Below are positions 3,679 to 61,981 of a stretch of DNA of 64,000 nucleotides, one piece after another. Both the position numbers and the translations under genes were made by a program. The notes beneath the pieces were generated by a model, which saw only the letters and a list, made by a program, of their open reading frames with translations, did not search any database and was not told the DNA's origin. The stretch is from an uncultured virus (IMG/VR IMGVR_UViG_3300042691_030539) (lineage: Duplodnaviria; Heunggongvirae; Uroviricota; Caudoviricetes): IMG/VR virus record IMGVR_UViG_3300042691_030539. One strand, 5' to 3'. Positions within the stretch are counted from its first letter, which is position 1; each line of letters starts with the position of its first letter.

Positions 3679-3683
3679 CAGAT

Positions 3684-3851: not shown

Positions 3852-3856
3852 CACAA

Positions 3857-3928: not shown

Positions 3929-3932
3929 CATG

Positions 3933-4012: not shown

Positions 4013-4083
4013 TGCCCTTTAGTATAACGGTAGTACGACAGATTTTGATTCTGTTTGTTGTGGTTCGAATCCATGAGGGGCAA
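4013..4083 (+). tRNA. tRNA-Gln(TTG)
   Basis: ACAGA-TT TTG AT-TCTGT. Confidence 0.93.
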
Positions 4084-4086
4084 CAA

Positions 4087-5486: not shown

Positions 5487-5974
5487 TGAAGAAAGAAAAA
5501 ATATGGTTGTATTTAGATGATGTTCGAATACCGACCGAAGGAAATTGGCAAGTGGTTAGAAATTATGATGAGTTTATTTTGCATATAAAAATGCATGGGT
5601 TGGAGAACTACGAAGTAATAAGTTTGGATCACGATTTGGGTGAAGGTGCAATGGTAGAATATTATACCAACGTAAAACCTAATTATGAATTAAATTATGA
5701 AAGGATACCTGAAAAGACGGGTATGGATTGTGCTAGATTTTTGGTAACGGAAGCAATGAACAAAAATATTCAGTTACCAACTATCTATGTACATTCTGCC
5801 AATCCAATCGGAGCAGCAAATATAATAGGTTATATTAACAACTATTTTAGAAATCACAAATTGCCTGAAGTTTGTGTGAAAGTTAATATAGAACACACAT
5901 ACTCACCTGACCAAATTTTGAGTGAGGAAGAAAGACATCGTAGATACAATATTGTAAAAAAATATAAAAAATAA
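5483..5974 (+). CDS. Cyclic-phosphate-processing receiver-domain protein
   Basis: YLDDVR...SLDHDLG...TGMDCA...VHSANPIG signature. Confidence 0.75.
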   Translation: MMKKEKIWLYLDDVRIPTEGNWQVVRNYDEFILHIKMHGLENYEVISLDHDLGEGAMVEYYTNVKPNYELNYERIPEKTGMDCARFLVTEAMNKNIQLPTIYVHSANPIGAANIIGYINNYFRNHKLPEVCVKVNIEHTYSPDQILSEEERHRRYNIVKKYKK

Positions 5975-32635: not shown

Positions 32636-33265
32636 ATGAAAATAAGAACTTGGGGATGTTCAATTACTACAGGGTATGGAATGAACACTACATATACAAA
32701 CGTATTAAGCGATACACTACAATGTGAAGGTATAAACACAAGTAAAGATGGAATAGGGAACGATTGGATATTTCATAACATAGTAGAATATCTGAATAGT
32801 GTAGAAACCGAAACCGAAGATTGGCATATAGTACAATGGAGTGGACCAATGAGAAGGTTACATCAAAGTATTAGTGGAAAGGAATGGACGGTGTATCCTG
32901 ATGTAGGGGATTCGAATGGATTAGGTCCGAAATGGGAACCAATGGGATCCAAACACACACTACACTACATGTACTGCGTTCAAGAATTATTCCAAACGAA
33001 AGGAATACGGAACTGGATATTTTGGAATTACTTCCCGTTAGATGAATCCGTAAAAGGATTAAATACATACAACGGAATCGAATGGAATAATTTTGTAGAT
33101 ATTGATAGGGCGTGGATGATAAAAAATAATTACGTTTGGGATGGAGAAGATGGAGGGCATCCGAATATAGAAGGCATATATTGGATAGCAAATACATTAT
33201 TAAATAAAATGGGTTACAATATTAAATTAGAATATAAGGATTACAAATACAGAGGGGTTATATAG
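32636..33265 (+). CDS. SGNH-hydrolase-like protein
   Basis: WGCSITTG, GIGN, IVQWS and GGHP. Confidence 0.7.
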   Translation: MKIRTWGCSITTGYGMNTTYTNVLSDTLQCEGINTSKDGIGNDWIFHNIVEYLNSVETETEDWHIVQWSGPMRRLHQSISGKEWTVYPDVGDSNGLGPKWEPMGSKHTLHYMYCVQELFQTKGIRNWIFWNYFPLDESVKGLNTYNGIEWNNFVDIDRAWMIKNNYVWDGEDGGHPNIEGIYWIANTLLNKMGYNIKLEYKDYKYRGVI

Positions 33266-36230: not shown

Positions 36231-36304
36231 GGTCAGATGGCGCAATTGGTTAGCGCAAGATGCTTATACCATCGAGGCTACGGGTTCGAGTCCCGTTCTG
36301 ACCA
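36231..36304 (+). tRNA. tRNA-Ile(TAT)
   Basis: Acceptor GGTCAGA/TCTGACC + A73; GATG-CT TAT AC-CATC; T-arm ACGGG-TTCGAGT-CCCGT. Confidence 0.9.
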
Positions 36305-36328
36305 CTAAACAATTTTAAAATTTGAATT

Positions 36329-40955: not shown

Positions 40956-41864
40956 ATGAAAAACTTAATTCTTCCCGTTTTGGGAGTTCTTACTCTATTC
41001 ATTGCTACATGCAAAAGAGAAACCTATCCAGTTAAAACAATTAGACCTGAAGTTTGTGATTTCGGTCCTATAAACTCTAATGAATTTCAAAACCGTGAGG
41101 AATTTGAGATGGCAAGAGTTGGTAGTGGACCTCGTCCAAAAGATTCAGATAGAGATGGTATTTTAGATACACAAGATAATTGTCCTAAAACTAAAAATCC
41201 GGATCAAAAAGATTCAGATGGTGATGGTATAGGTGATGTATGTGACCCATATCCATACGGAAATGAACCAACCGTTTCTTCTGTTATCCTATTGGATTTT
41301 GATGGATACTATGTTAATAGTCCGATGTGGAATAGTGGTGTACCAAAACAGGTATTACCAAGTGGATTATACCCTGCGGATATACAAACTATATTGGATA
41401 GTGTAAGTAAAGATTTTTCCAGATTCAATATTATCGTAACAACTGATGAGAATGTTTACTTAAATTCAAATCGTTTGAAAAGAATGAGAGTGGTAGTAAC
41501 AACATCAAGTGAAATATATCCAGGTGTTGCCGGTATTGCTTATGTAGGTTCTATGTTTTGGGGAGATGATACACCATGTTTTGTTTTCTCAAATACAATG
41601 TCATACAATGCATTGAGAATAAGAGTTGCGACATCACACGAGTCCGGCCATACTGTCGGATTGTATCACCAATCACAATACGATACAAATTGTAATCTTT
41701 TATATACATACAAACCATGTGATTATACAACGAATAGTGGACCTATAATGGGTTCGATTGGTTCTAATTGTAGAGCAATGTGGTGGAACGGACCTACACC
41801 AAATGGATGTACATATATACAAAACGATACATTGGTTCTAAAAACGAATTTAGGTGTTAGGTAA
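40956..41864 (+). CDS. Lipoprotein metzincin metalloprotease with thrombospondin type-3 repeats
   Basis: FIATC lipobox; DSDRDGILDTQDNCP and DSDGDGIGDVCD; HESGHTVGLYH; Met-turn PIMG. Confidence 0.85.
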   Translation: MKNLILPVLGVLTLFIATCKRETYPVKTIRPEVCDFGPINSNEFQNREEFEMARVGSGPRPKDSDRDGILDTQDNCPKTKNPDQKDSDGDGIGDVCDPYPYGNEPTVSSVILLDFDGYYVNSPMWNSGVPKQVLPSGLYPADIQTILDSVSKDFSRFNIIVTTDENVYLNSNRLKRMRVVVTTSSEIYPGVAGIAYVGSMFWGDDTPCFVFSNTMSYNALRIRVATSHESGHTVGLYHQSQYDTNCNLLYTYKPCDYTTNSGPIMGSIGSNCRAMWWNGPTPNGCTYIQNDTLVLKTNLGVR

Positions 41865-41915
41865 ACTTTTTCGTTTAGGAACAAATACTTATAGGAAGTA
41901 AGTAAATTGTACCTA

Positions 41916-42302
41916 ATGAAAAAAGTTTATCTAATACTGTTATGTTTATCATTAACAGGTTTTAATGCATTCTCTCAAGAAAAGTGGAGAGCTCTAACAT
42001 TCAATTCCGTAAGCGGAACGGATTTTAAAGGACAGAAGTTTAATCAGATTACATCCGGTCTACACTATGACTTGAAAAATCGTATGTACATTTCCAATTG
42101 GAATGGTATTCAGTTTAACTATGGAAAACAAAAAAGTAGTTGGTTTAGTTCACAAACAACAATCAATAGTTATATTGGTAAGTGGACATTTGGTGTAGGA
42201 GTTCAATACGGAATGGTATCTATTCCAAATTTTACTCCATACTTTTCGAACAATACTACATGGTTTATATCAACGGCATCGTACAGATTTAAATTGAAAT
42301 AA
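41916..42302 (+). CDS. Secreted beta-strand-rich (outer-membrane-like) protein
   Basis: Signal peptide AFS-Q; C-terminal ASYRF. Confidence 0.6.
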   Translation: MKKVYLILLCLSLTGFNAFSQEKWRALTFNSVSGTDFKGQKFNQITSGLHYDLKNRMYISNWNGIQFNYGKQKSSWFSSQTTINSYIGKWTFGVGVQYGMVSIPNFTPYFSNNTTWFISTASYRFKLK

Positions 42303-42304: not shown

Positions 42305-43612
42305 ATGGATGCGTTGTTACAAAACATAACATACCTTGCAGCCGGTATGTATATATTCTATTCTCTTATTATATTAGGTGTATACTTTATCACATCTATT
42401 AGATTGTGGTTTACATATAAAAAATCTGAAATCATAAATGGTTCCGATTATAAACCAATGGTATCTATAATAGTACCAGCATACAATGAAGAAGTATCTG
42501 TTGTGGAATGTATTCGTTCTCTTTGTTTGCAAGATTATCCAAACAGAGAAATAATAATTGTAAATGATGGTTCTACGGATAATACACTACAGGAAATAGT
42601 TGATACATTCAATCTGCGTGAGGTTGGAAATATTCATAGAGGATGGGATATAAAGGTAGTAACTACCGAAAATAGAGGTAAATGGTCAGCTCTAAACACC
42701 GGCCTTAAATTTGCTGAAGGTGAGTGGGTATTAAATGTAGATGCAGATACTATATTAGTTTCTAATGCAATAAGTAGAACTGTCGAATTATTAAGACCCG
42801 ATACCGATGCCATATCATGTTTTATTGGTGTAGTTAATCAAAATAAGATTGAAGATGGGAATATTACAACAAATAGAATTCCAAAAAATTGGTTAGCAAG
42901 AATACAATGGTTAGAATACATACGATGTTTTCTATTATGGAGAACTGCAAACGATAAACACAATGCAACATTGGTTTTGCCCGGCGCGTATTCATTTATG
43001 AAACGTGATTTAGTTTTGGAACTGGGTGGATATAAAGAAGGATTTTTAAGTGAAGATATGGAACTGACAATGAATATAATTAAGAATGGTGGAAAGATAC
43101 AATTCATATCCGAATTTTTAGCATGGACAGAAGTGCCCGAAAACCTTCGTGATTTAACAAAACAAAGATTGAGATGGTACAGAGGAGGTTTACAGAATCT
43201 AATAAAATATTGGAGAATGTTATTTAGTAGAAAACGTAGTAAGTTTGTTGGATTCTATATGTTACCTTTTTTATGGTTTGCTGATGTGTTTGGTATATGG
43301 GTTGAATTATTTGGATTACTACAATTATTTATTTATTACTATATGGGTATTCCGATTGAATGGAATTTAGTATGGTTATCGGTTATGATAATAGTATCCT
43401 TATACTACCTATCAATGCTTTCTTTGGTGTGGTTTGCGAAACGTAAAATATTCAACGGAAAACATATAGGATTAATCAGAATTATACCTGTGATATTATT
43501 AGAACCAATATCATACCATTTTATAAATCTGTATTGGATGTTGCATTCCCATACAAATCAATACTTAAATAGAGCTAAAAATTGGAATAAATTTAAACGT
43601 AAAGGATTTTAA
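42305..43612 (+). CDS. Processive GT2 glycosyltransferase (PgaC/IcaA-like)
   Basis: VPAYNEE, NDGSTD, VDADT, SED, QRLRW; several TM helices. Confidence 0.9.
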   Translation: MDALLQNITYLAAGMYIFYSLIILGVYFITSIRLWFTYKKSEIINGSDYKPMVSIIVPAYNEEVSVVECIRSLCLQDYPNREIIIVNDGSTDNTLQEIVDTFNLREVGNIHRGWDIKVVTTENRGKWSALNTGLKFAEGEWVLNVDADTILVSNAISRTVELLRPDTDAISCFIGVVNQNKIEDGNITTNRIPKNWLARIQWLEYIRCFLLWRTANDKHNATLVLPGAYSFMKRDLVLELGGYKEGFLSEDMELTMNIIKNGGKIQFISEFLAWTEVPENLRDLTKQRLRWYRGGLQNLIKYWRMLFSRKRSKFVGFYMLPFLWFADVFGIWVELFGLLQLFIYYYMGIPIEWNLVWLSVMIIVSLYYLSMLSLVWFAKRKIFNGKHIGLIRIIPVILLEPISYHFINLYWMLHSHTNQYLNRAKNWNKFKRKGF

Positions 43613-43946: not shown

Positions 43947-45938
43947 ATGAGAGCAGTAATATTAGGAACGGATTTTGTAAAAGATACCGATGGTTCTTTC
44001 AAAACAATTGAAACAAATACCAACGTAGGACTTCAAGTTGATGCAACAAAATACTTTAATATAAATGAATTTGATACATTTCTAACGGAAAATAATCTAA
44101 ATGAAGTAGTTGTTGTATACAACTTATCAAATATGCAAATAAATAGAGTTACTACAGAATTACAAGAAAATAATCCAACTTATTCCAAATCTGATAAAGT
44201 TTTTTATCAACTATTAAAAGAATATTATAGTGGGAGTTCTGTATCAATTTCCCAACAAGTTGTAAATGATACATCGGTAACTATCCCAAATGTCACAGAC
44301 TCACCAAATAAGTTGATATTAAGAGTTGCATATGATACAACATCTTTAATAGATGATGTATATGCAAGAGATAACTGGGAGTTTTTAAAATTAATGAACG
44401 ATAGTAATCCGAATTCAATTCCTAAAACCTACATCGATGATGTAGAATTGGGGTTTGATAGTATAGGTAATACATTGAGAGATAATGGAAATCATCCAAA
44501 TTACTGTATTAAAAAAAGAATAACACCAACAAACAATAATTTATATCCGAAGTTACTCAAAATAACATCTGTTGAACAATTGCAAACTATAAAACAAAAT
44601 TTAGATGCAGATGAGTATTTACAAGAATACATTTTTAATGGTAATGATTTACTTTATAACAAAACAAAAGTTTATAGAAGCATTGATTTAGTATATGGTG
44701 GTGCACTGGATGTATTGAATTTGTGGGTAATGGAACATACTAATATATTGGATACAATTACAATTCCCGATTATGATGATAATAACTCTGTTCAAATTTG
44801 GGATAGAAATAGATATGTTACAAAATATAATTCCAAAACAAATGATATTGCAGTGAAATTGTCTGCGGATGAAGGTACAAAAATTTTAGATATAAATGGT
44901 AATATTATCCTTGCAGAAAATTTAGCAATAAGTGATTTAGTAAAAACAATTGATTTTCCAAATATACAATACGATATTCCTGAATTTACTGCATTAGAAT
45001 GGACCGGTAGTGTATCTGATATTCTTAATCAATCATACACTACATCATCAACGGTTCAGAGTATTATCCAATCATCGTATTTTGGTGAAATAGTAGAAAT
45101 AGAATTAAATAATGGATCAACGTTTTCCGATGTACCACACGCATTGATATTAATGGAAGTTGATGAATCAGGATCAAACTTTGCACAATTTTGCTCCTAT
45201 GATAGTTTAAAAACTGGATCAAATGTATTTGTTTGGGATACACAAACCAATCAGATGATTACTACATCAATAGTAAATAAATACTATTCATATCAGCAAC
45301 TGAATGCATATACAATAAACTTAAACGATTTTGATTTATTTTTAACATTGGAAGAAAGTAGTACAAATAGATATGGATTAGTTACGCATAATTTTGATTT
45401 TGATTGTATTGCTTATACCTGTCCAGGATATAGTACAGCACAATACCTACCAGCAAATACTTGTTATGATTGTGCTACCGGAACATTTGGTGGAACTCCA
45501 CCAGCAAGTGGATTAAACCGACCTGCTAATAGTTGTTCATCTGTAGGAGAATGTTGTAGAGTGGGTGGTCAATATATTGGACAAAATCCGGGCACATATC
45601 AGTGTCAATATTGGGGAGCATGGGGTTGTGCGGTTGGTAATACGATTGTTGAAACCGGAGGATATTGCAATCAAAGTAAACCATCTGATGTTGGTCTAAA
45701 AACAAATATCAATTATTTGGATGTTACTACAGATGGATTAAAACTATATTCATTCGAATACAAAGATAAAATTAAAACTTTATGGAAAGATGAGACAAAC
45801 GAAAGTTTGGATGGAGTGTGGATTGGAGTTATGGCTCAAGATTTAATTGGCACAAAATATGAATCGGCCCTTTGGAAACATAAAGAAGGATTTTATGTTA
45901 TAGATTATACAAAATTACCAAATATACAAAAAATATAA
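43947..45938 (+). CDS. Multidomain polyprotein: ATP-grasp-like, Hint, Cys-rich peptide, peptidase S74 chaperone
   Basis: GTDF...FKTIETNTN and YCIKK...YLQEYI; SADEGTKIL...LVTHN; 10 Cys; PSDVGLK...IGVMAQDL...IDY. Confidence 0.8.
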   Translation: MRAVILGTDFVKDTDGSFKTIETNTNVGLQVDATKYFNINEFDTFLTENNLNEVVVVYNLSNMQINRVTTELQENNPTYSKSDKVFYQLLKEYYSGSSVSISQQVVNDTSVTIPNVTDSPNKLILRVAYDTTSLIDDVYARDNWEFLKLMNDSNPNSIPKTYIDDVELGFDSIGNTLRDNGNHPNYCIKKRITPTNNNLYPKLLKITSVEQLQTIKQNLDADEYLQEYIFNGNDLLYNKTKVYRSIDLVYGGALDVLNLWVMEHTNILDTITIPDYDDNNSVQIWDRNRYVTKYNSKTNDIAVKLSADEGTKILDINGNIILAENLAISDLVKTIDFPNIQYDIPEFTALEWTGSVSDILNQSYTTSSTVQSIIQSSYFGEIVEIELNNGSTFSDVPHALILMEVDESGSNFAQFCSYDSLKTGSNVFVWDTQTNQMITTSIVNKYYSYQQLNAYTINLNDFDLFLTLEESSTNRYGLVTHNFDFDCIAYTCPGYSTAQYLPANTCYDCATGTFGGTPPASGLNRPANSCSSVGECCRVGGQYIGQNPGTYQCQYWGAWGCAVGNTIVETGGYCNQSKPSDVGLKTNINYLDVTTDGLKLYSFEYKDKIKTLWKDETNESLDGVWIGVMAQDLIGTKYESALWKHKEGFYVIDYTKLPNIQKI

Positions 45939-46120: not shown

Positions 46121-46447
46121 ATGGATATTGGTTTTAAAAAGATAGTGGGTTCTTTATTAAAAGACCCTACAAAAATAGTTACCATTGCAGATGCATGGAT
46201 TACCGCTGCAACCCCGACGGAAGAACAAAAAAAATTAGCAGAAGCTAGATGGAATATTTGCAGACAGTGCCCGGAGTTTAGAGAAAAACGGGATGTGATT
46301 GGTGATCCTTATTGTAACGATTGTGGATGTCCTCTTAAAAAGAAAATATTTACAAAAACTTACAATGAATGTCCTTTAAAAAAGTGGGAAGAGGTGGATA
46401 ATATATTTTGGAAAGATACACAAAAGATAAAAAAATCTATTTTATAA
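46121..46447 (+). CDS. Cys-rich metal-binding protein (DUF6171-like)
   Basis: RWNICRQC...CNDCGCPL...CPLKKW; ends KKSIL. Confidence 0.75.
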   Translation: MDIGFKKIVGSLLKDPTKIVTIADAWITAATPTEEQKKLAEARWNICRQCPEFREKRDVIGDPYCNDCGCPLKKKIFTKTYNECPLKKWEEVDNIFWKDTQKIKKSIL

Positions 46448-47731
46448 ATGTTACAAAAAATATATGTACACCACTATTATTCGATATCATTATTTTATAA
46501 ATTAGCCCACAATACAACTGAACGAGTATATTCCCTAAATAATGACATCGGAAGTGTTTTCTGTTTATATAATGGAAAAAAATTTGAATTTATTTTTAAT
46601 CCTGAATTAAACGATAATAATGATGGAATCCATCTTATTGATTTTTTATCAATAAATTATCAATTATATAAAAATGCAGAATATTCCGAAATAGACTGTG
46701 TGAATTTTCAAAAAGATCAAACAGCACATAGGGCCGGTGGTCCTTTTGGTACGAATGATATTCCAATAATGAAATGGATTGCAGACAAATTGCAAAATAA
46801 AAAAAAATGGATAATATTACTATTGAGGACCGAAAAATCGTTTATAAAATACGATTGGCCTCAATATTATCAAATAATGGATTTGGAAAATCAAATAGCA
46901 AGATGTAAGAACCATTACATAGTATCTGATAATCTTTTTTTAAATGATACCGTTGAATCTAACTATCCAAATCATTATTTTGTATTAACAAATACAATAC
47001 ATCAATGGAATGAACTACTATCAATACGATGGTATTATGAGTTCAAAAATATTTACGAAAAATTAAATCCTCCATATGATTTATGCTTCTCAATGCGTTA
47101 TCATAAAAAAAATAGAACGGCTTTGATAAAAGAATTGGCAAATTTAAAAAATAATCGTATCTTCTTATCAAGAACAGACAACTGTAAAAATAAAGAATTT
47201 TATAAAGAAGAAATTGATTTAAAAAAATTTAAAAATATAAATTTAAACGAATGGGAAGGTAGAGATTTTGCTGATATCAGCTGGGTTGAAAACGTAGAAC
47301 ATTATTTAGATTATATTATGAGAATATTACCAATGTCTAAATTACATATACTTTCAGAAACTTGGGATTGGTTTGATGGTGAACTTACATCAAATTATTT
47401 ATCAGAAAAAACGTATGGATTAATTTTAGCTAAAATACCATTCATATCTACGCACACATATCCACTAAAAATTGTTGAAAAAGCTTTGGGTGTCGAACAA
47501 CACCCATTCTACAAAGAAATATCCGAATGTGGAGTTGATGTAAAAAAATTTGTAAATTTTGTAAAAAAATTTTTAGATAATTTTGATGAAAATCATAAAT
47601 TGTGCGAAAATTGGAGTAATGAATGTCATACTCAACTTACCAATAAAATTAATAGTGAAAATTCTTTATTAGATATTATTCTAAATGATTTTAAAAAAAA
47701 TAATAAAATTTTTAAAAAAAATATAATCTAA
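46448..47731 (+). CDS. Hypothetical enzyme, possibly glycosyltransferase-like
   Basis: ILSET...YLSEKT...IPFI motif; ends KKNII. Confidence 0.65.
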   Translation: MLQKIYVHHYYSISLFYKLAHNTTERVYSLNNDIGSVFCLYNGKKFEFIFNPELNDNNDGIHLIDFLSINYQLYKNAEYSEIDCVNFQKDQTAHRAGGPFGTNDIPIMKWIADKLQNKKKWIILLLRTEKSFIKYDWPQYYQIMDLENQIARCKNHYIVSDNLFLNDTVESNYPNHYFVLTNTIHQWNELLSIRWYYEFKNIYEKLNPPYDLCFSMRYHKKNRTALIKELANLKNNRIFLSRTDNCKNKEFYKEEIDLKKFKNINLNEWEGRDFADISWVENVEHYLDYIMRILPMSKLHILSETWDWFDGELTSNYLSEKTYGLILAKIPFISTHTYPLKIVEKALGVEQHPFYKEISECGVDVKKFVNFVKKFLDNFDENHKLCENWSNECHTQLTNKINSENSLLDIILNDFKKNNKIFKKNII

Positions 47732-48465
47732 TGTTAATTGATAATAAGTTTTTTTATATTCCATTACCAAGATGCGCATCAACTTCTTTTTTTGCAACTT
47801 GTGTTAAAGAAAATATAAAAATAGAAACCGTAAGAGATTGGCTTAGTGTGGATACGCAAATAAAAAAATTTAATATAGATATAAACAATCTAAACTACGA
47901 TACGTTTCCACAACAATTCAGACATGCACATGAACCATTAAATCTTATGATTGAAAAATTTGGAAACCATGAAACAATATCTGTAAAAAGAAACAAATAC
48001 GATAGATTTATATCGACTTGGAATCATATTTTGCATGAAATGCATTTACACGAACACCCATATATTTTTAGAAAATGTTTATCTCTTAAATTGGATGATA
48101 TACTGTTTTATAAATCAGAAAATATTGTTGATAGTAGCTCAACTCAAAATACAATAAATGAATTCATATCTAGAAATTCTTTAGAAAAAATTGGAGAGTA
48201 TGGTATAAATATGATTATGATATTACTGAAGCCGGCATCCGATTATCATCATCATAATAAAGATATAATTTGGTTTGATTTTGAAAAATTATGGGAGTTA
48301 GAAAATTGGGTATCTAATAAATTAAATCGTAACTTCAAACTACTTAAAATAAATTCTAGTAGCCACTACTCCGGTTGCCTAAAATTAGATGCCAATTTTA
48401 TGAATAAATATGATTCTATATATGAGGTATATGATGTACCTAAAACACAAAAAAGTTTAATATAA
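47731..48465 (+). CDS. Sulfotransferase-like protein
   Basis: 5'PSB-like YIPLPRCASTS and 3'PB-like VKRNKYDRFIS; ends QKSLI. Confidence 0.7.
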   Translation: MLIDNKFFYIPLPRCASTSFFATCVKENIKIETVRDWLSVDTQIKKFNIDINNLNYDTFPQQFRHAHEPLNLMIEKFGNHETISVKRNKYDRFISTWNHILHEMHLHEHPYIFRKCLSLKLDDILFYKSENIVDSSSTQNTINEFISRNSLEKIGEYGINMIMILLKPASDYHHHNKDIIWFDFEKLWELENWVSNKLNRNFKLLKINSSSHYSGCLKLDANFMNKYDSIYEVYDVPKTQKSLI

Positions 48466-48469
48466 TGTT

Positions 48470-49033
48470 ATGAAAAGAGTAGAATTGAATGGAACATACG
48501 GATACGAAAATTTTATATCAGATGAAGAACAAAACTTTTTATTAAATTGGGTTTCAAAAAATGAAAGTTTATTTCATATTAACCAAACAGGAAGTGATAC
48601 CGTAAATGCTCCATATGGATCTAGAAAAATGTGTATCTTATCTAATTTTAAAAATGCACCTATTGAATTGGTAACCAATATAAAAAATAGAATAATAGAT
48701 ATTGAAAATATCGGTGAATGGATTGAAGAACCATATTTTAAAGATGCTATTGGAATAAATGGGGAAGGTGGAGCAATACATACACATTCTGATCCAAATA
48801 TAGATGGATATACTCACACTCGATACAATGTAATATTATCATATCCAATTGAGGGTGGCCACTCCATATACGATGGCCGGATAAATATTTTAAAAGAAAA
48901 AATGGTATGGAAATGCGTTGCTGGCAAAGTAAAGCATGGTAGTACAAATGTAGTGGGGCCAAAACCAAGAATAACATTAACTTTAGGATTTCAGATTAAA
49001 GATAAAGCAAAGCAAAAGAAAAGTTTAATATGA
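48470..49033 (+). CDS. 2OG-Fe(II) oxygenase
   Basis: HSD...H...R(IT) facial triad; ends KKSLI. Confidence 0.8.
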   Translation: MKRVELNGTYGYENFISDEEQNFLLNWVSKNESLFHINQTGSDTVNAPYGSRKMCILSNFKNAPIELVTNIKNRIIDIENIGEWIEEPYFKDAIGINGEGGAIHTHSDPNIDGYTHTRYNVILSYPIEGGHSIYDGRINILKEKMVWKCVAGKVKHGSTNVVGPKPRITLTLGFQIKDKAKQKKSLI

Positions 49034-49479
49034 AACGGTATGAACTGAACCATACGGAGATTATTAAAGAGCCTGAATTGTATTTTATCCATATATACAA
49101 CAAAGTTTGGATGGAATCGTATAAAGATACTATTCAACTTTTAATTCATTATTTTAATGATGAATATACGTGGGATGGAATGTTCACATTGAATGATGTT
49201 GAGAATCGTATAAAAGAAGGACATAATTTATTTATACTATATGTTGATAAACGAGCAATCGGATATGTTTGGTTCAGAGAAATAGATAAAAATACATGCT
49301 TTGGATACAATCTATATGTAACTAAAAAAATTGATAGACCCAAATGGGCCGCAAAGTGGTTTTATAATAAAGTATCTGAAATAATGCTAAAAAATTATAA
49401 AAAGATAAAAGTCGAAATAGAAGATTGGAATGGTGTGGTTATTGATATGGTAAAACGTATTGGATATAAAGAAATTTAA
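49030..49479 (+). CDS. GNAT-fold acetyltransferase-like protein
   Basis: AIGYVW, NLYV, W-N...KRIGY. Confidence 0.65.
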   Translation: MKRYELNHTEIIKEPELYFIHIYNKVWMESYKDTIQLLIHYFNDEYTWDGMFTLNDVENRIKEGHNLFILYVDKRAIGYVWFREIDKNTCFGYNLYVTKKIDRPKWAAKWFYNKVSEIMLKNYKKIKVEIEDWNGVVIDMVKRIGYKEI

Positions 49480-49489
49480 ATTAAAAAAT

Positions 49490-49807
49490 ATGATTATAGT
49501 TCCTGAAACACCGATAACAGAAGCAAGTTTTGAAAAATGGAAGTCACACAAAATAGAAGTTACAGATGAAGAAGATAGTTACTTCTATTATATCATTCCA
49601 CTAATAGATGTGGGTGAAGAAGAAATTATGGATATAGAGTCCGTTCCTGCACTATTTAGTTCTGAATCAGATGAATTTGAAGATGAAAATGGTAATCGTA
49701 TATTTACAATGCGTTTATTTGATGATGATTTACCTGAATTAACCACAGAAGAGGAAGTTGAAATTCTTTATAATATACTTACTAAAAAAGATTTAATATC
49801 CAAATAG
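49490..49807 (+). CDS. Acidic hypothetical protein
   Basis: ATG 49490. Confidence 0.65.
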   Translation: MIIVPETPITEASFEKWKSHKIEVTDEEDSYFYYIIPLIDVGEEEIMDIESVPALFSSESDEFEDENGNRIFTMRLFDDDLPELTTEEEVEILYNILTKKDLISK

Positions 49808-49809
49808 TA

Positions 49810-50436
49810 ATGAGAGTATTGATTATTGCACAACCAAGAACAGGAAGTACTATATTTTCAAAATGGTTAAGTAAAGAACTATCTTTATTGTGGTTAGATG
49901 AACCGTTCAATAGACAACTAGGAATATGTATAGAACAGTTTTTTAATTCGGATAATATACTTGCAAAAGTAATTTTTGAAGAAAAAAAAGGTGAGTGGTT
50001 TTATGACAAGAGAATTAAAAAAAATGATGATATATTATCATTAAATTGGGATTATATATTTGTATTGACGAGATTAAATACAAAAGATCAGGCGATAAGT
50101 AAAATTTGGGCTAATGAAAATCAATGCTGGTCTGAAACAAAATATAAAATTGATGAGGAGTGGACAAATAGACGTGATAGAATAATAGAAAAACAAATAA
50201 TAAAATTTGAAGAAGATAAAAAAATTATTGATTCCATAAATGCATACAAACTAACATATGAAGAAATATATGAATCAAAATCTATTATAAATGATATAAA
50301 AAATATTTTTAATATAGATAGTTTTGAACATTTAGATGATTTATCAAAGGAAAATAGATATAGGAAATTCAATGATTATAATGGAGAAGATTTATTTGAT
50401 AATTTCAAAAAAAAATCTTATATTAGAGTATTATAA
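49810..50436 (+). CDS. Sulfotransferase-like (Stf0-like) protein
   Basis: IIAQPRTGST, EPFN, LTR...QAIS and LTYEE. Confidence 0.75.
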   Translation: MRVLIIAQPRTGSTIFSKWLSKELSLLWLDEPFNRQLGICIEQFFNSDNILAKVIFEEKKGEWFYDKRIKKNDDILSLNWDYIFVLTRLNTKDQAISKIWANENQCWSETKYKIDEEWTNRRDRIIEKQIIKFEEDKKIIDSINAYKLTYEEIYESKSIINDIKNIFNIDSFEHLDDLSKENRYRKFNDYNGEDLFDNFKKKSYIRVL

Positions 50437-50452
50437 AGTTAAACTCTAAAGA

Positions 50453-51097
50453 ATGAAACAAAAAACAGAAGCCGAATTACAGGCAAATTACGAAAAATTT
50501 ATTGCAGTATTAAAAAAGTATTTTACAGGTAAAAGACTTGAAAAACTACTTCATATGTACTCCGAAAAAGAATTAGGAATAAACCTAACCTTATCACCGG
50601 CTTCCGGTGCGGTTCAATACCACAATGCGTATATTGGGGGTTATATTGACCACATTTTCAATGTAACAAAAAATGCTTTGAGAATGAAAGAAATGTTTAT
50701 ATCGGCGGGTGGTAACATAGATTTTACAGATGAAGAATTGGTATTTGCCTGTTTGCATCATGATTTGGGAAAATTGGGGGTTGCAGGTGAGATGCATTAC
50801 CTACCAAACGATTCAGATTGGGAAATTAAAAAAGGCCATGTATTCAAGAGAAATGATAAAATTTCCTATATGACTCTTACTGATAGAACATTTTTTACTT
50901 TGAATGAATATGGGATATCTTACAATGAAAAAGAATATTTTGCTATAAAACTAACCGATGGTATGTATGATGAGGATAATCAGAAATACCTAAAAGGACA
51001 TGATATTAAAAAGCAATTGAGATACAAACTGCAATTCATTATGCATTGGGCAGACCACATGTCTACTATAATTGAAAGACAAGATGTCAAAATGTAA
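50453..51097 (+). CDS. HD-domain phosphohydrolase
   Basis: HNAYIGGYIDH, LHHDLGK, HWAD; upstream promoter TTTG 50395 / TATATTAG 50419. Confidence 0.85.
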   Translation: MKQKTEAELQANYEKFIAVLKKYFTGKRLEKLLHMYSEKELGINLTLSPASGAVQYHNAYIGGYIDHIFNVTKNALRMKEMFISAGGNIDFTDEELVFACLHHDLGKLGVAGEMHYLPNDSDWEIKKGHVFKRNDKISYMTLTDRTFFTLNEYGISYNEKEYFAIKLTDGMYDEDNQKYLKGHDIKKQLRYKLQFIMHWADHMSTIIERQDVKM

Positions 51098-51176
51098 TGA
51101 CATTATTACATAAAATTTGAATTGGTATAATAATTGAACATAATGTGTATATTATTTAACCAAAAAATTAAAAACT

Positions 51177-51563
51177 ATGTATTACACACATTTTGACAAA
51201 ATTTTAGACACACTATTTGATGACCAAATTGTTTGGAAAAATCACTCAACAACATTTGTTCCATCCAAATTTGCAGTAGATGTTATTGATGATAGAGCAC
51301 ATATTGCACTATCTGTATTGGGTCATAATCCCGAAAACATTGATATCAACTGCTATGAAGATAGAATTGAAGTAAAGGCAAAAAAGAGTGAAGAAAAGTT
51401 ACCTTTTAACCAATTAGTAGCCAATATCGATGAGAGAATTACTTTAGGTAAAGATTTAGATGGTAGAAATGCCAAAGCGGAAATTAAAAACGGTATTTTA
51501 ACAATCGTTGTAGAAAGAAAAGAAGAATCTAAACCTAAAAAAATAAATTTGAAGGTATCTTAA
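51177..51563 (+). CDS. Small heat-shock protein (Hsp20)
   Basis: AEIKNGILTIVV...KPKKINL. Confidence 0.85.
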   Translation: MYYTHFDKILDTLFDDQIVWKNHSTTFVPSKFAVDVIDDRAHIALSVLGHNPENIDINCYEDRIEVKAKKSEEKLPFNQLVANIDERITLGKDLDGRNAKAEIKNGILTIVVERKEESKPKKINLKVS

Positions 51564-51751
51564 TTACGACTTCTTCGATATTTAAGTATTATTTTTAAAA
51601 TTGTTATGAAAAGAACAATACCTACTGCAATTTTAGCAATTGGATCTTTTGATATAGTATGCAATAGAGGTATTAATTTTTGTATAGATTCTATATAATA
51701 ATCTATATCTAAAAGTTCATCCATATTAATGGATTGTAGTATGGTTTTCAT
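51560..51751 (-). CDS. Small membrane protein
   Basis: C-terminal TM helix; TATTTATA immediately upstream on the minus strand. Confidence 0.55.
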   Translation of the reverse strand: MKTILQSINMDELLDIDYYIESIQKLIPLLHTISKDPIAKIAVGIVLFITILKIILKYRRSRN

Positions 51752-51881
51752 AAGTATAAATATTTAAATACACAGTTTAAAAGTTGGAAAAATCGGTTAT
51801 TTTTCGTATAATTGAAGAGGTAAGAATTTTTCTTACCTTTTTCTTTTTTTTTAAAAACATAAAAATAAAATATTTATACCT

Positions 51882-52058
51882 ATGATATACAACGAAAAAA
51901 TACAAACTTTGTTAGAAGCACTCGATGGCAAATTGAGAATAATTCAAAATGTTGCCGCTGGTGCTCAACAACTAACTCCATCGGAAGTTAATACTACAAT
52001 TGAGGATGCACGAAAAATAGTAGAACGTGTATCGGAGTTAGTTTCGATTAATAGATAA
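51882..52058 (+). CDS. Small helical protein
   Basis: Manual ORF MIYNEKIQTLLEALDGKL...VSINR after TATTTATA. Confidence 0.65.
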   Translation: MIYNEKIQTLLEALDGKLRIIQNVAAGAQQLTPSEVNTTIEDARKIVERVSELVSINR

Positions 52059-52062
52059 TACT

Positions 52063-53217
52063 ATGAATTGGCTTAAGATTTTAGTCGGATTTTCCGCACT
52101 AATTATTGCAGGATGTGCGGCTTATTTTTCAGTAACAGGATTAGGTGTACTATTCGCTGGAGCATCAGTTTCTGTTATGATAATGGCCTCTGCGTTGGAA
52201 CTTGCAAAATTAGTTGCAGCTACTTATTTGAAACAAAAATGGGATGAAATTAGTGGATTTAACAAATGGTATATTACCATTTCGGTTGGAATTCTTATGC
52301 TAATCACATCTGCAGGTATTTTTGGTTATTTATCAAATGCGTTTCAGGCACAATCTCTAAAATTACAAGTAGTAGATAGAGAAATTGCCGTACATGAAAC
52401 AAAAATTACCGCAAATGAACAAAGGATTATACAATTTACCGAACAAATATCAGTTTTACAGCAAAATTCGGGTAAATTATTAGATAACGGCAAAGTAAAC
52501 TCTCGTCTTATCCGTTCGGTTGATAACAGAGATAAAGAAATCTCAAAAATTAATGATAAAATCTCTAAATTACAAGAAGAAAATTCATTAGAAACAGAAA
52601 AAATCAATGAAATTAAGTTAAAAAATTTAGATTTAGAAAAAGAAGTTGGTGGGTTTCGTTTTGTAGCGGAAGCATTTGGGATGGAATTAAAAAATGTAGT
52701 AAAATTCTTCATATTTTTAATTGTAATTGTATTTGACCCACTTGCCGTTGCGTTAATTATCGCTTTCAACGGATTACTTTCTGATGGGAAAAGACGAAGA
52801 AGGGAGATTTTAACAGAAATGATGGAAAATGACGAAAAATTGGGGTTATATGAAATCTATGGTGATAAAAAAGAAGATATAGTGGAAAATATTTCACAAA
52901 ATACAGAAGATAGTGGAAAAAATTCTACAAAAGAAGAAGAAACGCAATCTATATTGGAAAATAATTTAAGAATACCAATAGATTTGGATGGTGACGGAAA
53001 CGTAGATGGATATGATACTGATGGTGATGGGTTGATTGATGAATTTACTCCAAAAACTGCTGCCAGAGCAAGAGAGATTAAGAATAAGTTACCATACTAT
53101 GCAAGACCGGGATTTGATTGGTCCGATAAAACACAATGGATAAATGACCAAAACGCAGTTAATTACTGGCTAAAATATAAAAAGTCCCAAGAGGATGATT
53201 TAGTTAAAATTTACTAA
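52063..53217 (+). CDS. Multi-TM coiled-coil protein with DxDGDG Ca-binding repeats
   Basis: N-terminal TM helices; DLDGDG and DTDGDG. Confidence 0.8.
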   Translation: MNWLKILVGFSALIIAGCAAYFSVTGLGVLFAGASVSVMIMASALELAKLVAATYLKQKWDEISGFNKWYITISVGILMLITSAGIFGYLSNAFQAQSLKLQVVDREIAVHETKITANEQRIIQFTEQISVLQQNSGKLLDNGKVNSRLIRSVDNRDKEISKINDKISKLQEENSLETEKINEIKLKNLDLEKEVGGFRFVAEAFGMELKNVVKFFIFLIVIVFDPLAVALIIAFNGLLSDGKRRRREILTEMMENDEKLGLYEIYGDKKEDIVENISQNTEDSGKNSTKEEETQSILENNLRIPIDLDGDGNVDGYDTDGDGLIDEFTPKTAARAREIKNKLPYYARPGFDWSDKTQWINDQNAVNYWLKYKKSQEDDLVKIY

Positions 53218-53256
53218 AATTTGGTATTTTAGATTATTTTTCTTATATTAGTACCT

Positions 53257-54198
53257 ATGAATATAGGATATGCATGTATTAATATGACAATGGGTAAGCA
53301 CGTAACAACAAATCGTGCAATGGTTAAAAAAACCTTCAATACCAAAGGATTGGATTATGTTTCCGAACTTGCACTTAAAAATTCGGCAGACATTATTAAG
53401 ATTTTAGAATGGAATAGATTAAATGGTATCTATTTCTTCCGATTATCTTCTGCAATCATTCCGTGGGGTGACCATATTGATTTAACCCAACTTAAAGATT
53501 ACAAACAAATTAAGAGAGAACTCAAAAAAGCAGGTGATTTTGCTAAATTTCACAATATGCGTATTAATTCGCATCCTGGTCCTTTTTGTGTACTTACTTC
53601 ACCAAATGAAACCGTTGTAAACAATACAATAGCAGATTTGGAACTACATGGTAAGATATTTGATATGATGGGGTTATCTAAAACACCATACAATAACATT
53701 AATATTCATTGTAATGGGGTTTACGGAGATAAACAGAGTGCAATGGATAGATTCATCACCAACTTCAATAAGTGTTCTAATTCGGTTAAAACGAGGCTTA
53801 CAATTGAGAATGATGATAAAGGTTCTATGTACTCCGTTAAGGATTTGATGTACATTTACGAAAGAACAGGTATCCCCATTGTATTCGATTACCATCATCA
53901 TCAGTTTTGTACAGGTGACCTTTCAGAAGAACAGGCATTAAAGTTAGCAGCAACAACCTGGCCTGAAGGAATCACGCAGGAAGTACATTATTCAGAATCA
54001 AAAGCTTTGCATGAGAATGATAGCAAACAAAAACCACAAGCACACTCCGATTATATTAATGTTCTCCCCAATACATACGGATTAGATTTGGATATTATGG
54101 TTGAAGCAAAAGCAAAAGAATTAGCAATACTACCATTCATAGGTAAACAAAATATGTGTGAATATAGTGGATTAAAATCAGTAGAATCATACGTTTAA
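53257..54198 (+). CDS. uvsE: UV-damage endonuclease
   Basis: IGYACIN, FFRLSS, HPG, IENDD, FDYHHH, HSDY and MVEAKAKE. Confidence 0.93.
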   Translation: MNIGYACINMTMGKHVTTNRAMVKKTFNTKGLDYVSELALKNSADIIKILEWNRLNGIYFFRLSSAIIPWGDHIDLTQLKDYKQIKRELKKAGDFAKFHNMRINSHPGPFCVLTSPNETVVNNTIADLELHGKIFDMMGLSKTPYNNINIHCNGVYGDKQSAMDRFITNFNKCSNSVKTRLTIENDDKGSMYSVKDLMYIYERTGIPIVFDYHHHQFCTGDLSEEQALKLAATTWPEGITQEVHYSESKALHENDSKQKPQAHSDYINVLPNTYGLDLDIMVEAKAKELAILPFIGKQNMCEYSGLKSVESYV

Positions 54199-54391
54199 TT
54201 ATTTAAAATTTATATATGAAAAATTATTTTGATTATTGGTATAAAAGAACCATAAAAGATGGGTTGAAAGCAATCAAATTAGTAATAGGGTTGGGATTAG
54301 CAGTATCTTTTGGGTATTCCGTTAATTTGCCAATTGGTATTATGTTTTTTGGATGGGTATTGATTGAATCTCTTATAGAAAAAAATTAATT

Positions 54392-54760
54392 ATGAAAAAA
54401 TACGCATTATATATTGGAAGATGGCAGAATTGGCACAAAGGACATGAGTGGTTAATCCGCCAACAAATGGATAAAGGAAAGAATGTTTGGGTTGCAATTA
54501 GAGATGTGCAGGTGGATGAAAATAATCCAAAATCTGCTCAAGAAGTTTTAATTATGTTACAAAATGAACCATTCTTTCAGAGTAATTGGGACAAACTATT
54601 TGTATCAATCATTCCTGATGTTGAAAGTGTAAACTATGGTAGAGGTGTAGGTTATGATGTTATCTATCACGAACCACCAACTGAAATTGCTGAAATAAGT
54701 GGAACTAAAATTAGAAAGGGAGTTATAGATAATAACGGAAATAGTATAGATGTTTTATGA
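54392..54760 (+). CDS. HxGH nucleotidyltransferase
   Basis: YIGRWQNWHKGH; ISGTKIR. Confidence 0.8.
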   Translation: MKKYALYIGRWQNWHKGHEWLIRQQMDKGKNVWVAIRDVQVDENNPKSAQEVLIMLQNEPFFQSNWDKLFVSIIPDVESVNYGRGVGYDVIYHEPPTEIAEISGTKIRKGVIDNNGNSIDVL

Positions 54761-55299
54761 TTATAGTAGAAGAAAATTTTAATTTACTAGATTCGATTGA
54801 AAAAGATTCTATAAAAGAAAAATGTGATAATTTTATGATATCACAATCTCCAAATATGAATGGAGAAATGAAAAACTACTACAATAGGTTTACATTGAAT
54901 CCGAATGCCAACGATTTAAAATCTATAAGTCAAAAAATATTATCCTATACAAAGGAAAAAATAAGATTATATTCATCCGATATGAGAGGGTGTGATATTC
55001 AAAATACAAAATCTATTTCTATAAATAGAATAGATACTACATCAAATACCAATGATGGGTATCATTATGATGATTCAGATGTAACGTTTATTTTGTATTT
55101 AAATGATGAATTTGAAGGCGGTGAGTTTGAATATATTGATAACAAAAATAGTGTAAAAAAAATAAAACCTAAAAAAAATATGATTATCATTTCCAACGAT
55201 AAAGTAAGTCATAGAGTTCTTCCCGTAGTAAGTGGTATTAGGTATAGTTTAATTTATTTTTTTGATATTATAAAGAAAAAAGACAAAACACTAATATAA
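54757..55299 (+). CDS. 2OG-Fe(II) oxygenase
   Basis: HYD, LYLNDEFEGGEF, HRV and RYSL; ends DKTLI. Confidence 0.85.
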   Translation: MIIVEENFNLLDSIEKDSIKEKCDNFMISQSPNMNGEMKNYYNRFTLNPNANDLKSISQKILSYTKEKIRLYSSDMRGCDIQNTKSISINRIDTTSNTNDGYHYDDSDVTFILYLNDEFEGGEFEYIDNKNSVKKIKPKKNMIIISNDKVSHRVLPVVSGIRYSLIYFFDIIKKKDKTLI

Positions 55300-55511
55300 T
55301 GCCTTTAGTTAAAAGACATATAGCAAAAAGTATAAGTTATAGGTTTATAGGAACTATAACTACAATTATTCTTACCACAGTTGCCGGCCTTCCAATAAAG
55401 TGGGCAGGAATGGTGGGATTGGGAGAGTTAGTAATCAAACCAATAATATACTTTCTACATGAGAGGATTTGGTATAAATTTATAAAATACGGATTAAAAA
55501 AAGAAAAATGA
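55299..55511 (+). CDS. DUF2061-like membrane protein
   Basis: AKSISYR...YFLHERIW. Confidence 0.8.
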   Translation: MPLVKRHIAKSISYRFIGTITTIILTTVAGLPIKWAGMVGLGELVIKPIIYFLHERIWYKFIKYGLKKEK

Positions 55512-61031: not shown

Positions 61032-61541
61032 ATGGATTCAAAATTATTAGTCGGATTGATTAAAGAAGTTGTTCAACGTGAAGTTAAGCAACAGGTCAAA
61101 GAAGAACTGGCGAAGTTAATTAAATCCGGTGCGGTTACATTAAACAAAGAAAGAAAGCAGCCATCATTAATGGAAATGACGGAAGTTAATAAAACTGCAC
61201 CGATTAAAACACAGACAGTTACTACGCAAATAAAAAGACCTCAACAAACAAAGGAATTTACAAAAAATCCTATTTTGAATGAGGTTTTAAATATGACACA
61301 ACCATTCACTGCACAACAAAGAGCAGAAGGTTCTATGCCAGGAGTTAGTGGTGGTAGTAGTGTTTTAGATATGATACAGCCACAAATGAGTGTAGAGGAA
61401 GATTGGCAAACTATGGATTTTAGAGATATAAACGTACCATCGGATACTCCAAGCTTTGAAACAACAGGCGATGGACTCCAAGATGCAACAATTAAAGCAT
61501 TGACAAGAGATTATTCTGAATTAGTAAAGAGATTTAAATAA
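61032..61541 (+). CDS. Hypothetical late protein
   Basis: LIKEVV..EV; ends RDYSELVK; TATTTATA upstream. Confidence 0.7.
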   Translation: MDSKLLVGLIKEVVQREVKQQVKEELAKLIKSGAVTLNKERKQPSLMEMTEVNKTAPIKTQTVTTQIKRPQQTKEFTKNPILNEVLNMTQPFTAQQRAEGSMPGVSGGSSVLDMIQPQMSVEEDWQTMDFRDINVPSDTPSFETTGDGLQDATIKALTRDYSELVKRFK

Positions 61542-61978
61542 TGGCAATAGAATTAGGTAAAGTAAATGTAAGCGATTTAACCGAAAATGGTTATAAAAAA
61601 ATCGGAATTGGAATAAATACAACACCAAATACCGATGGTATATTCGCAACAAATTACACTACTTTATCACAAGCGAAGGATAATATTAAAAATTTATTAT
61701 TAACGCAAAAGGGTGAACGTTTAATGCAGCCTGATTTTGGTTGTGATATATGGAGAGTGATATTTGAACAATCGGTAGATGGTGAAATCGATATTGCTAT
61801 AGAAAATTCAATTATAGATGCTGTAAATACATGGTTACCATATTTAAATATAAATCAAATTATAATTGATAGTGATGATGATAGTAAAGATAGTAATAGA
61901 ATTGGTTTAGAAATCAATTTTTCATTAACATCAAATCCAAATTTGAAAGATTCGGTAAAAATTGTATTAAATAATTAA
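61541..61978 (+). CDS. Baseplate wedge protein, T4 gp25-like
   Basis: NLLLTQKGERLMQPDFGC...WLPY. Confidence 0.9.
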   Translation: MAIELGKVNVSDLTENGYKKIGIGINTTPNTDGIFATNYTTLSQAKDNIKNLLLTQKGERLMQPDFGCDIWRVIFEQSVDGEIDIAIENSIIDAVNTWLPYLNINQIIIDSDDDSKDSNRIGLEINFSLTSNPNLKDSVKIVLNN

Positions 61979-61981
61979 TAA

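Follow-up and report, generated by a model that had tools for sequence, protein, structure and literature searches.

Why should proteins of unrelated fold, encoded almost side by side in one viral genome, finish in the same four residues? The question is raised by a gene block in a 64,000-nucleotide stretch of DNA (the window) from an uncultured virus (IMG/VR record IMGVR_UViG_3300042691_030539), in which several predicted tailoring enzymes end in K-[ST]-[LI]-[IL] followed directly by the free carboxylate. An earlier note, made from the sequence alone, had taken this ending for a docking or addressing signal shared by interchangeable enzymes and had likened it to class I PDZ ligands. The ending proves to be a real short linear motif under protein-level selection, restricted to one gene block and conserved across related loci. 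That it serves as the docking tag of a phage peptide or protein maturation line, read most likely by the N-terminal domain of a constant and untagged neighbor, F5, is the reading that we prefer, at about an even chance.

All eight C-termini cited in the earlier note are present letter for letter in the window. Its 119 non-overlapping open reading frames (ORFs) of at least 50 residues on the plus strand include four with the strict tail, K[ST][LI][LI] at the C-terminus (KSIL at position 46447, KSLI at 48465 and 49033, and KTLI at 55299), and a fifth tail, KNII, is found on the protein ending at 47731. Chance expectation for 119 ORFs is 0.033 from the overall composition, 0.039 from the frequency of internal 4-mers and, if the ten C-terminal residues supply the composition, 0.059. 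The excess over these composition-matched controls is thus 70- to 100-fold, more than a background rich in Lys and Ile would yield, and the Poisson probability is about 5e-7 (by our own arithmetic, uncorrected, the pattern having been chosen post hoc). The 4-mer K[ST][LI][LI] occurs six times across all 119 window proteins, and four of these copies are terminal. Of the three looser cases that had been listed beside the strict ones, those at 50436 (RVL) and 33265 (GVI) conform to the looser tail, defined as K, R or N, zero to two residues, then two hydrophobic residues and the carboxylate. The homologues of the second end in NKII, NKTI or NTLI, and the single homologue of the first in the first set of related loci described below ends in NKLI. 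The third case (ATML, at 32597) does not fit and belongs to no family.

Related loci were collected in two sets, the first comprising 20 viral loci found with the 427-residue protein of the block (of which L001 is the window DNA itself) and the second 77 further loci found with a profile of the sulfotransferase-like protein, 8 of which come from contigs already sampled. Twenty-seven loci with 10 kb on either side of the sulfotransferase gene are referred to as full-flank loci. In these relatives, [KR][ST] or K[ST] followed by two hydrophobic residues was counted as the strict tail, and members of a family were made non-redundant by collapsing them on their last 30 residues. The pattern [KR][ST] plus two hydrophobic residues ends 74 of 461 ORFs in the first set, and the strict tail was found on 308 of 1552 ORFs in the second. 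On contigs of 81, 57 and 50 kb, strict tails are confined to one contiguous gene block each. Similarly, a related contig of 251 kb (75% complete, 271 ORFs) has four strict tails against 0.2 expected, all of them at 227.5-233.2 kb, within 6 kb around the F5 homologue.

The tail could in principle be functionless, a by-product of AT-rich composition, of the next gene's overlapping translation start or of a recombination junction held in common; the genome is rich in Lys, Ile and Leu, and in the window each tagged gene adjoins the start codon that follows or runs into it. The likelihood of this is close to negligible in view of the excess over chance and of the variability of the underlying DNA. 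Position -2 is encoded by ACA (30), AGT (11), ACT (10), TCT (7), TCA (7), ACG (1) and AGC (1), so that Ser is drawn from both the TCN and AGY boxes; Leu and Ile codons vary as well, and the offset from the stop codon to the next start codon differs between tagged genes. Because both codon use and the downstream DNA vary, the tail appears to be selected as protein and not as a DNA motif. Moreover, equally packed untagged neighbors lack it, and it is kept at 36-40% protein identity.

The composition of the tail was determined from 127 non-redundant members of tagged families in the first 20 loci. The last residue (position 0) is Ile in 56%, Leu in 24% and Phe in 14%; position -1 is Leu in 48% and Ile in 33%; position -2 is Thr in 33%, Ser in 24%, Lys in 22% and Asn in 9%; and Lys occupies position -3 in 71% (Asn in 14%) and position -6 in 45%. 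The 368 other ORFs of these loci have a quite different profile of C-terminal residues. The fuller motif is therefore Lys at -6, Lys or Asn at -3, often Ser or Thr at -2, hydrophobic residues at -1 and 0, and a free carboxylate.

This profile bears on the proposal that the tail is a class I PDZ ligand (x-[ST]-x-hydrophobic-COOH) with a PDZ protein as its reader. The free C-terminus, the hydrophobic last residue and the Ser or Thr at -2 in four of the five window carriers are shared with such ligands. However, Ser or Thr is found at -2 in just 57% of the 127 members, many carriers having Lys, Asn or Glu there (Glu in 50% of the halogenase family), and position -1 is constrained, unlike in PDZ ligands. 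PDZ_2 or PDZ_6 was found in none of five related phage records, one of them 75% complete, while 14 of 14 control genomes gave a match; when the window and an 81-kb relative were scanned with Pfam, no PDZ domain appeared either, and bacterial PDZ proteins are mostly periplasmic. A PDZ reader is thus highly improbable.

The tail is conserved and behaves as an add-on to the folds that bear it. For the sulfotransferase-like family, 151 homologues were retrieved at E <= 0.001; among the 120 listed, the most distant at 36% identity, the strict tail is present on 97 and the looser one on 113, and an alignment of 42 sequences shows no variation of the Lys at -6. For the 2-oxoglutarate (2OG) oxygenase of the window, all 16 close homologues (E <= 2.3e-20) end in [KN][ST] plus two hydrophobic residues, while the five distant ones (E 2.5e-5 to 2.9e-4) all stop at the last strand of the fold without a tail, which indicates that the tail has been appended. 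In the AlphaFold model of the sulfotransferase-like protein (predicted local distance difference test, pLDDT, 92.9), the last helix stops at residue 235; the remainder, residues 236-244, lacks secondary structure and is modelled with low confidence. In the family of the zinc-finger-like protein F3, a linker of variable length precedes the tail.

In the 77 loci, where families were scored for the looser form, it ends roughly 80-100% of the members of the main tailoring-enzyme families. It was found on 46 of 46 F3 proteins, on four families of 2OG oxygenases (90 of 94, 38 of 42, 9 of 9 and 4 of 4), on sulfotransferases (64 of 67), tryptophan halogenases (21 of 21), radical S-adenosylmethionine (SAM) proteins, some of them with SPASM domains (22 of 27), methyltransferases (7 of 7), two SET families (4 of 4 and 2 of 2) and SGNH proteins (23 of 29), as well as on the 427-residue family (10 of 12) and on a 186-residue family of unknown function (36 of 43). 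Pfam matches among the carriers include 2OG-FeII_Oxy_3 and _5, Trp_halogenase, Radical_SAM with SPASM, methyltransferase, SET and GDSL, and hhalign comparisons between the sulfotransferase, 2OG and Cys-rich families found no relationship.

The looser tail is absent from the kinase for adenosine 5'-phosphosulfate (APS; 0 of 15), from a cluster present in 34 related loci that we labelled nucleotidyltransferase-like for its likeness in size and position to the window protein (0 of 22), from a small cluster that we labelled DUF2061-like (69-83 residues, with like endings; 0 of 23), and from GNAT-like proteins (0 of 11), Hsp20 (0 of 12), the membrane protein F10 (0 of 12) and UvdE (0 of 8); it was found on 1 of 48 F5 proteins and on 46 of 490 among all other ORFs. 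In the first set, likewise, no member of the GNAT-like (0 of 19), nucleotidyltransferase-like (0 of 8) or DUF2061 (0 of 8) families is tagged, and the DNA ligase of the window (21562-22662) has no tail. A selected, free C-terminal tail that occurs on unrelated enzymes with plausibly one substrate, is absent from the presumed cofactor suppliers, APS kinase and its partner, and constantly accompanies an untagged protein with a hypervariable Cys-rich end is best explained as a docking tag. The APS kinase and the small nucleotidyltransferase-like protein recur beside tagged sulfotransferases (L078:5025-5459, L095:18615-18992; in the window, 54392-54760); together they might supply 3'-phosphoadenosine 5'-phosphosulfate (PAPS), the assignment of the second as ATP-sulfurylase-like being a guess.

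If the tail is read by a protein, a partner should be sought among the neighbors of the tagged genes. The earlier note had pointed to an upstream polyprotein, which is F5, and the association is strict: F5 and F3 are both present in 27 of 27 full-flank loci, the next family being found in 22. Presence in these loci is 15 for DUF2061, 9 each for Hsp20 and F10, and 6 each for the GNAT-like and 427-residue families. None of 120 listed F5 homologues, from a family of more than 260, has the tail. The F5 N-domain is our first putative reader and F3 the second. Two other candidates were dropped. The GNAT-like protein was the sole untagged member of the block in the first 20 loci, but its low frequency in the full-flank loci disqualified it; the Hsp20 groove was abandoned on the same ground, and the tail is not the I-x-I motif.

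The flavor of the tail also varies with the F5 clade. In clade B, 76% of the tails end in Ile; in clade C, 43% end in Leu and 41% in Ile; and the sulfotransferase of clade A has Phe last in 61%. This concerted shift suggests, weakly since there are three clades, that the reader is phage-encoded or co-evolves with the phage lineage.

These associations are also relevant to the alternative raised in the earlier note, that the tail is a degron or chaperone handle, read by an AAA+ protease or adaptor of the host or phage, which would limit the lifetime of potentially harmful enzymes. The tail is terminal, exposed and, in the AlphaFold model, unstructured; its basic-then-hydrophobic free C-terminus resembles the MuA-type ClpX signal and other protease tags; and the window encodes a MoxR/CobS-like AAA+ protein (9959-11263). 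Degradation, however, would explain neither the restriction to one block and the constant company of F5 and F3 nor the shift of flavor with the F5 clade, the block has no conserved protease, and F3, which is no enzyme by any match, is invariably tagged. We regard a degron as unlikely.

The architecture of F5 suggests what the tagged enzymes may act on. The window protein consists of an N-domain (residues ~1-300), a Hint-like region (~305-482), a Cys-rich region (~483-579) and a Peptidase_S74-like end (580-663). Residues His481-Asn482, at the end of the Hint-like region, are invariant in 34 sequences, and 117 of the 120 listed homologues have, beyond residue 350, a His-Asn preceded by a hydrophobic or polar residue. 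Profile searches of the Hint region against the PDB gave weak matches (E 0.1-0.3), mostly to chains that we take to be of Hint fold (the VMA intein 4o1s and the intein-like 2lwy and 6y75), and structural neighbors of F5 in the Atlas carry PT-HINT and Intein_splicing domains; a Pfam scan of the family gave no Hint or intein match. No conserved Cys or Ser nucleophile is found in the alignment at the start of the Hint-like domain, and the residue after His-Asn is variable (S, Y, G, A, V, F, T, P, Q or L). Without a conserved N-terminal nucleophile or +1 residue, C-terminal cleavage would be expected rather than splicing.

What follows the His-Asn pair is hypervariable: it comes in 42 distinct short forms, each 25-44 residues long and containing 6-10 Cys, and in 17 long ones. 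The short forms frequently share the framework C-W-C-x3-Y-C-G-x2-C-x4-C-x2-C, and 14 of the 42 end in Lys plus a hydrophobic residue. The window F5 is a long form, as is usual for its clade, with ~95 Cys-rich residues followed by a Peptidase_S74-type chaperone domain (PF13884, E 0.0059; 17.3 bits, under the 22-bit cut-off); this domain was matched in 9 of 14 F5 members (best E 3.2e-5) and is precomputed on 5 of the 120 listed homologues. From its sequence, F5, whose family ranges from 490 to 670 residues (for example L043:11819-13306 and L059:8094-9581), looks like the self-releasing precursor of a modified peptide or fiber tip. Its N-domain gave no match in Pfam and PDB sequence searches. In the Atlas, it has template modelling (TM) scores of 0.53-0.54 to GSP_synth and CP_ATPgrasp_2 models (query model pLDDT 0.57), and two queries that are 27% identical lie near the ATPgrasp_YheCD/TTL, ATP-grasp_3 and GshA clusters, with feature scores of 0.88-0.93. 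The domain is possibly carboxylate-amine-ligase-like, which is a lead only.

A mechanism can be proposed on this basis. In a widespread, uncultured, AT-rich clade of myoviruses, a flexible tail is appended, after a variable linker, to unrelated enzymes of one block. Each enzyme that visits the common substrate would dock through its tail on one shared reader, for which the conserved N-terminal domain of the F5 precursor is the likeliest candidate. The Hint-type domain of F5 would cleave itself at His-Asn and free the hypervariable Cys-rich peptide, and this Cys-rich region would be the common substrate of the tailoring enzymes. More tentatively, and with rather less likelihood than docking as such, the arrangement may be an "inverted leader," in which the substrate carries the ligase-like reader domain and the tailoring enzymes carry the address K-x-x-K-[ST]-hydrophobic-hydrophobic. 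With the address on the enzymes, a gain of four to seven codons would let any enzyme gene join the line. The same pocket may also handle the C-terminus of the peptide itself, considering the 14 short cores with a similar ending, for a carboxylate chemistry such as cyclization.

The ligase-like neighbors lend themselves to another reading, in which the tail is a substrate: the F5 N-domain would activate its C-terminal carboxylate and link the tagged proteins covalently to an amine of the precursor or of a virion protein. Two divergent F5 N-domains have neighbors of the ATP-grasp, TTL and GshA types, families that act on free carboxylates and in some cases on protein C-termini (RimK, tubulin tyrosine ligase), and the motif occurs strictly at the terminus. 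However, the assignment of the fold is weak, and the capture of up to a dozen enzymes would have no obvious use, which makes this reading very unlikely. Somewhat less improbable, yet doubtful, is that the tail is a localization signal, its two or three lysines and hydrophobic end holding the enzymes at the inner membrane or at a small membrane protein. Basic and hydrophobic C-terminal tails anchor some bacterial glycosyltransferases, and untagged membrane proteins recur nearby; DUF2061 or the 384-residue F10-type protein might be partners, and a membrane GT2 synthase-like gene is also present (42305-43612). Nevertheless, the candidate partners are missing from 12 to 18 of the 27 full-flank loci, four to seven residues with a charged carboxylate make a poor membrane anchor, and both the preference for Ser or Thr at -2 and the strictly terminal position point to a protein reader.

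Docking of interchangeable enzymes, as the earlier note had it, thus fits all the comparative evidence; the binding step itself we infer. Several observations weigh against this reading. A 5'-nucleotidase-like family is tagged in four of four members (looser tail), a glycosyltransferase-like family in only 8 of 17, and the GNAT-like protein, which possibly acts on the substrate, is never tagged. Four loci have a tagged sulfotransferase without F5 or F3 in the record; these records are 5-16% complete and prove little. The shift of flavor, limited to three clades, could be explained by shared descent. The AlphaFold model of the F5 N-domain, from 14 sequences, reached a pLDDT of only 43, and the ligase-like label, drawn from language-model and low-confidence structure neighbors, is no firmer than a lead. 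A complex prediction of the F5 N-domain (1-300) with ATP and the sulfotransferase scored 0.01 and 0.00 against a mark of 0.32, and weighs neither way.

The genes of the block and the other window genes referred to are given in Table 1.

Table 1. Positions of the tagged and untagged genes discussed, in window coordinates.
Protein	Position	Strand	Length (residues)	C-terminus	Tail codons	Remarks
SGNH-like (via homologues)	32636..33265	+	209	YKYRGVI (weak tail)		
F5	43947..45938	+	663	untagged		
F3, Cys-rich, zinc-finger-like	46121..46447	+	108	QKIKKSIL	46433-46444	
427-residue protein	46448..47731	+	427	KIFKKNII	47717-47728	
Sulfotransferase-like	47731..48465	+	244	PKTQKSLI	48451-48462	
187-residue protein	48470..49033	+	187	AKQKKSLI	49019-49030	phrog_13746, function unknown
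GNAT-like	49030..49479	+	149	GYKEI (untagged)		Acetyltransf_1, E 0.0017, below cut-off
208-residue protein	49810..50436	+	208	KKKSYIRVL (looser tail)	50422-50433	No Pfam match
F10-type membrane protein	52063-53217		384			
Nucleotidyltransferase-like	54392..54760	+	122	SIDVL (untagged)		phrog_10255, phrog_395, cytidyltransferase-like
2OG-Fe(II) oxygenase	54757..55299	+	180	KKKDKTLI	55285-55296	PF13640, E 7.9e-11
DUF2061 small membrane protein	55299..55511	+		untagged		PF09834, E 4.9e-12

The tagged proteins differ in how readily they can be assigned. The sulfotransferase-like protein has no Pfam match of its own, PF03567 being precomputed on 8 of the 120 listed homologues. Its motif PRCASTSF, which resembles a PAPS loop, is invariant or nearly so, and its best Foldseek matches are sulfotransferases, albeit weak ones (E 3.3e-3 to 0.1); Pfam and fold matches together with the PAPS-loop-like motif place the family among the sulfotransferases. 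The alignment of F3 shows invariant C50, C65, C68, G69, C70 and C84, with weak DC1, C1 and zinc-ribbon matches in the PDB (best E 0.009). The 427-residue protein gave no match in Pfam and PDB sequence searches, and its homologues end in KNII, KKLL, KKLI, KKIL, KSLI or KTLI. The 187-residue protein, whose three family members in the first set end in KSLI, KTLF or KNLI, aligned weakly with the 2OG family in hhalign (E 0.0094 over 82 columns) and is possibly a distant oxygenase of the double-stranded beta-helix type. In the 208-residue protein, we read the N-terminal IIAQPRTG as a sulfotransferase-type P-loop. The SGNH-like protein has no Pfam match itself, and a homologue matches DUF6071 (1e-8) and Lipase_GDSL_2 (9e-5). 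A PDB profile search with a family of 379-409 residues gave nothing significant.

The window belongs to a large myovirus and includes gp25- and gp6-type baseplate genes at 61541-64000. All its genes lie on the plus strand of AT-rich DNA (GC 0.26-0.40), and it also encodes a peptide deformylase, Hsp20, UvdE, a carbamoyltransferase, a DNA ligase and 12 tRNAs, eleven of them clustered at its start (142-4084) and a lone tRNA-Ile(UAU) at 36231-36305. Through a baseplate protein, its closest cultured relatives are Microcystis phage Mel-JY01 (43.5% identity) and Flavobacterium phage immuto (39%). Among GenBank phages, a DNA search with the region gave no match, and a protein search with the sulfotransferase, the 427-residue protein and F5 found no homologue; the 2OG oxygenase matched over a 68-residue stretch only, in four Melnitz phages. 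No relative of the sulfotransferase family was found in a scan of one genome per prokaryotic species. On the related 81-kb contig, the minus strand encodes an 825-residue SusC/TonB-dependent-receptor-like protein with CarboxypepD_reg and Plug domains (L024:7230-9704), which may hint at a Bacteroidota host.

Just upstream of the block lie genes for a Reprolysin-like metallopeptidase that looks secreted and contains a thrombospondin type 3 repeat (40956-41864), a small protein resembling an outer-membrane beta-barrel (41907-42302) and the membrane GT2 synthase, which is weakly similar to chitin synthases; the three are not kept in most related loci. The AAA+ gene lies downstream of that for a 753-residue protein (7628-9889) that weakly matches a PHROG family bearing the annotation cobalamin biosynthesis protein and that we read as CobT-like. 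Pairs of MoxR/CobS-like and CobT-like proteins are common in marine T4-like phages. On four fragmentary contigs, a lone tagged sulfotransferase (L042:9659-10393 and L050:10001-10735 among them) directly follows a 1047-residue protein, with no F5 block visible nearby; in size and C-terminus, the latter is like a Metallophos/AAA_23 (SbcCD-like) protein of a related contig. Near the window start (4731-5974), a calcineurin-like phosphoesterase is followed by a protein with a cREC_REC (cyclic-phosphate processing receiver) domain, a pair linked to RNA repair in excerpts of a paper on jumbo phages (Iyer et al., 2021; PMC7824862).

Should docking be the function of the tail, it would be a minimal portable address of four to seven residues, with which a virus could swap oxygenases, halogenases, radical SAM enzymes, sulfotransferases and methyltransferases in one modification line. 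The clusters, which appear to make heavily modified Cys-rich peptides or fiber tips, form a large unstudied family in phages, with more than 260 F5 and more than 150 sulfotransferase homologues, and the motif offers a simple computational handle on the enzymes of the pathway, including families of no known fold.

Short C-terminal tails with a common reader are known from several systems. The sliding-clamp tails of T4 and RB69 gp43, gp33 and gp55, and the bacterial QL[SD]LF, are likewise shared hydrophobic C-terminal tails that bind one hub, and some phage tails here end in S-L-F or S-L-L. A clamp-binding tail was nevertheless rejected, as there is no conserved Gln at -4 and the carriers are oxygenases, sulfotransferases and the like, not DNA enzymes; the gp45-type clamp family (PF02916) was not found in five fragmentary records. 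ClpX signals (MuA-type C-motif 2, ssrA) and adaptor tails are similarly short, exposed, basic-then-hydrophobic C-terminal peptides, but ClpX signals mark substrates for unfolding, whereas the phage tail marks a coherent set of enzymes tied to one neighboring gene. The peroxisomal targeting signal type 1, read by Pex5, resembles it in being a basic and hydrophobic C-terminal tag of three or four residues on unrelated enzymes, whose free end is recognized by one receptor. It differs in serving import into a eukaryotic organelle and in the order of its residues, [SAC]-[KRH]-[LM] as against K-[ST]-hydrophobic-hydrophobic. We know of no TPR receptor for the phage tail.

Among phages, similar enzyme repertoires have been described. 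Cyanophage arrays combine several unrelated 2OG dioxygenases with tryptophan halogenases, with a predicted role in peptide or metabolite modification, and operons of hydroxylases, sulfotransferases and PAPS synthetases are found together with substrates of the tail-collar or collagen-like kind (Iyer et al., 2010; PMC2938197). The excerpts of that account used here mention neither a shared C-terminal tail nor a Hint-linked precursor, and those of a later one, on a cyanophage cluster in which carbamoyltransferases are grouped with 2OG enzymes, name no tail (Iyer et al., 2021; PMC7824862). In cyanophage Syn9, which has a similar enzyme cluster, the tail is on 0 of 24 proteins. Searches of the open-access literature turned up no account of the tail or the F5 architecture.

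The closest parallel is provided by peptides made on ribosomes and modified after translation (RiPPs), in which a leader and a PqqD-like RiPP recognition element (RRE) likewise bring unrelated tailoring enzymes to one ribosomal precursor through a short peptide and its reader. The enzymes are alike (radical SAM/SPASM proteins, halogenases, oxygenases, methyltransferases and sulfotransferases), and a hypervariable Cys-rich core beside conserved processing and tailoring genes, as seen here, is a trait of RiPP clusters. The precursor differs, being a short leader-core peptide in RiPP pathways and here a protein of several hundred residues with a Hint-type domain, and no RRE-type domain from Pfam was found in the tagged enzymes scanned. 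A plug-and-play rule such as the one suggested here is not described for ribosomal peptide pathways, in which the address is normally on the substrate. In RiPP systems, the precursor thus bears the address and the enzymes the RRE, whereas in these phages it is the enzymes that carry the short peptide and the precursor that carries the large conserved domain, the candidate reader.

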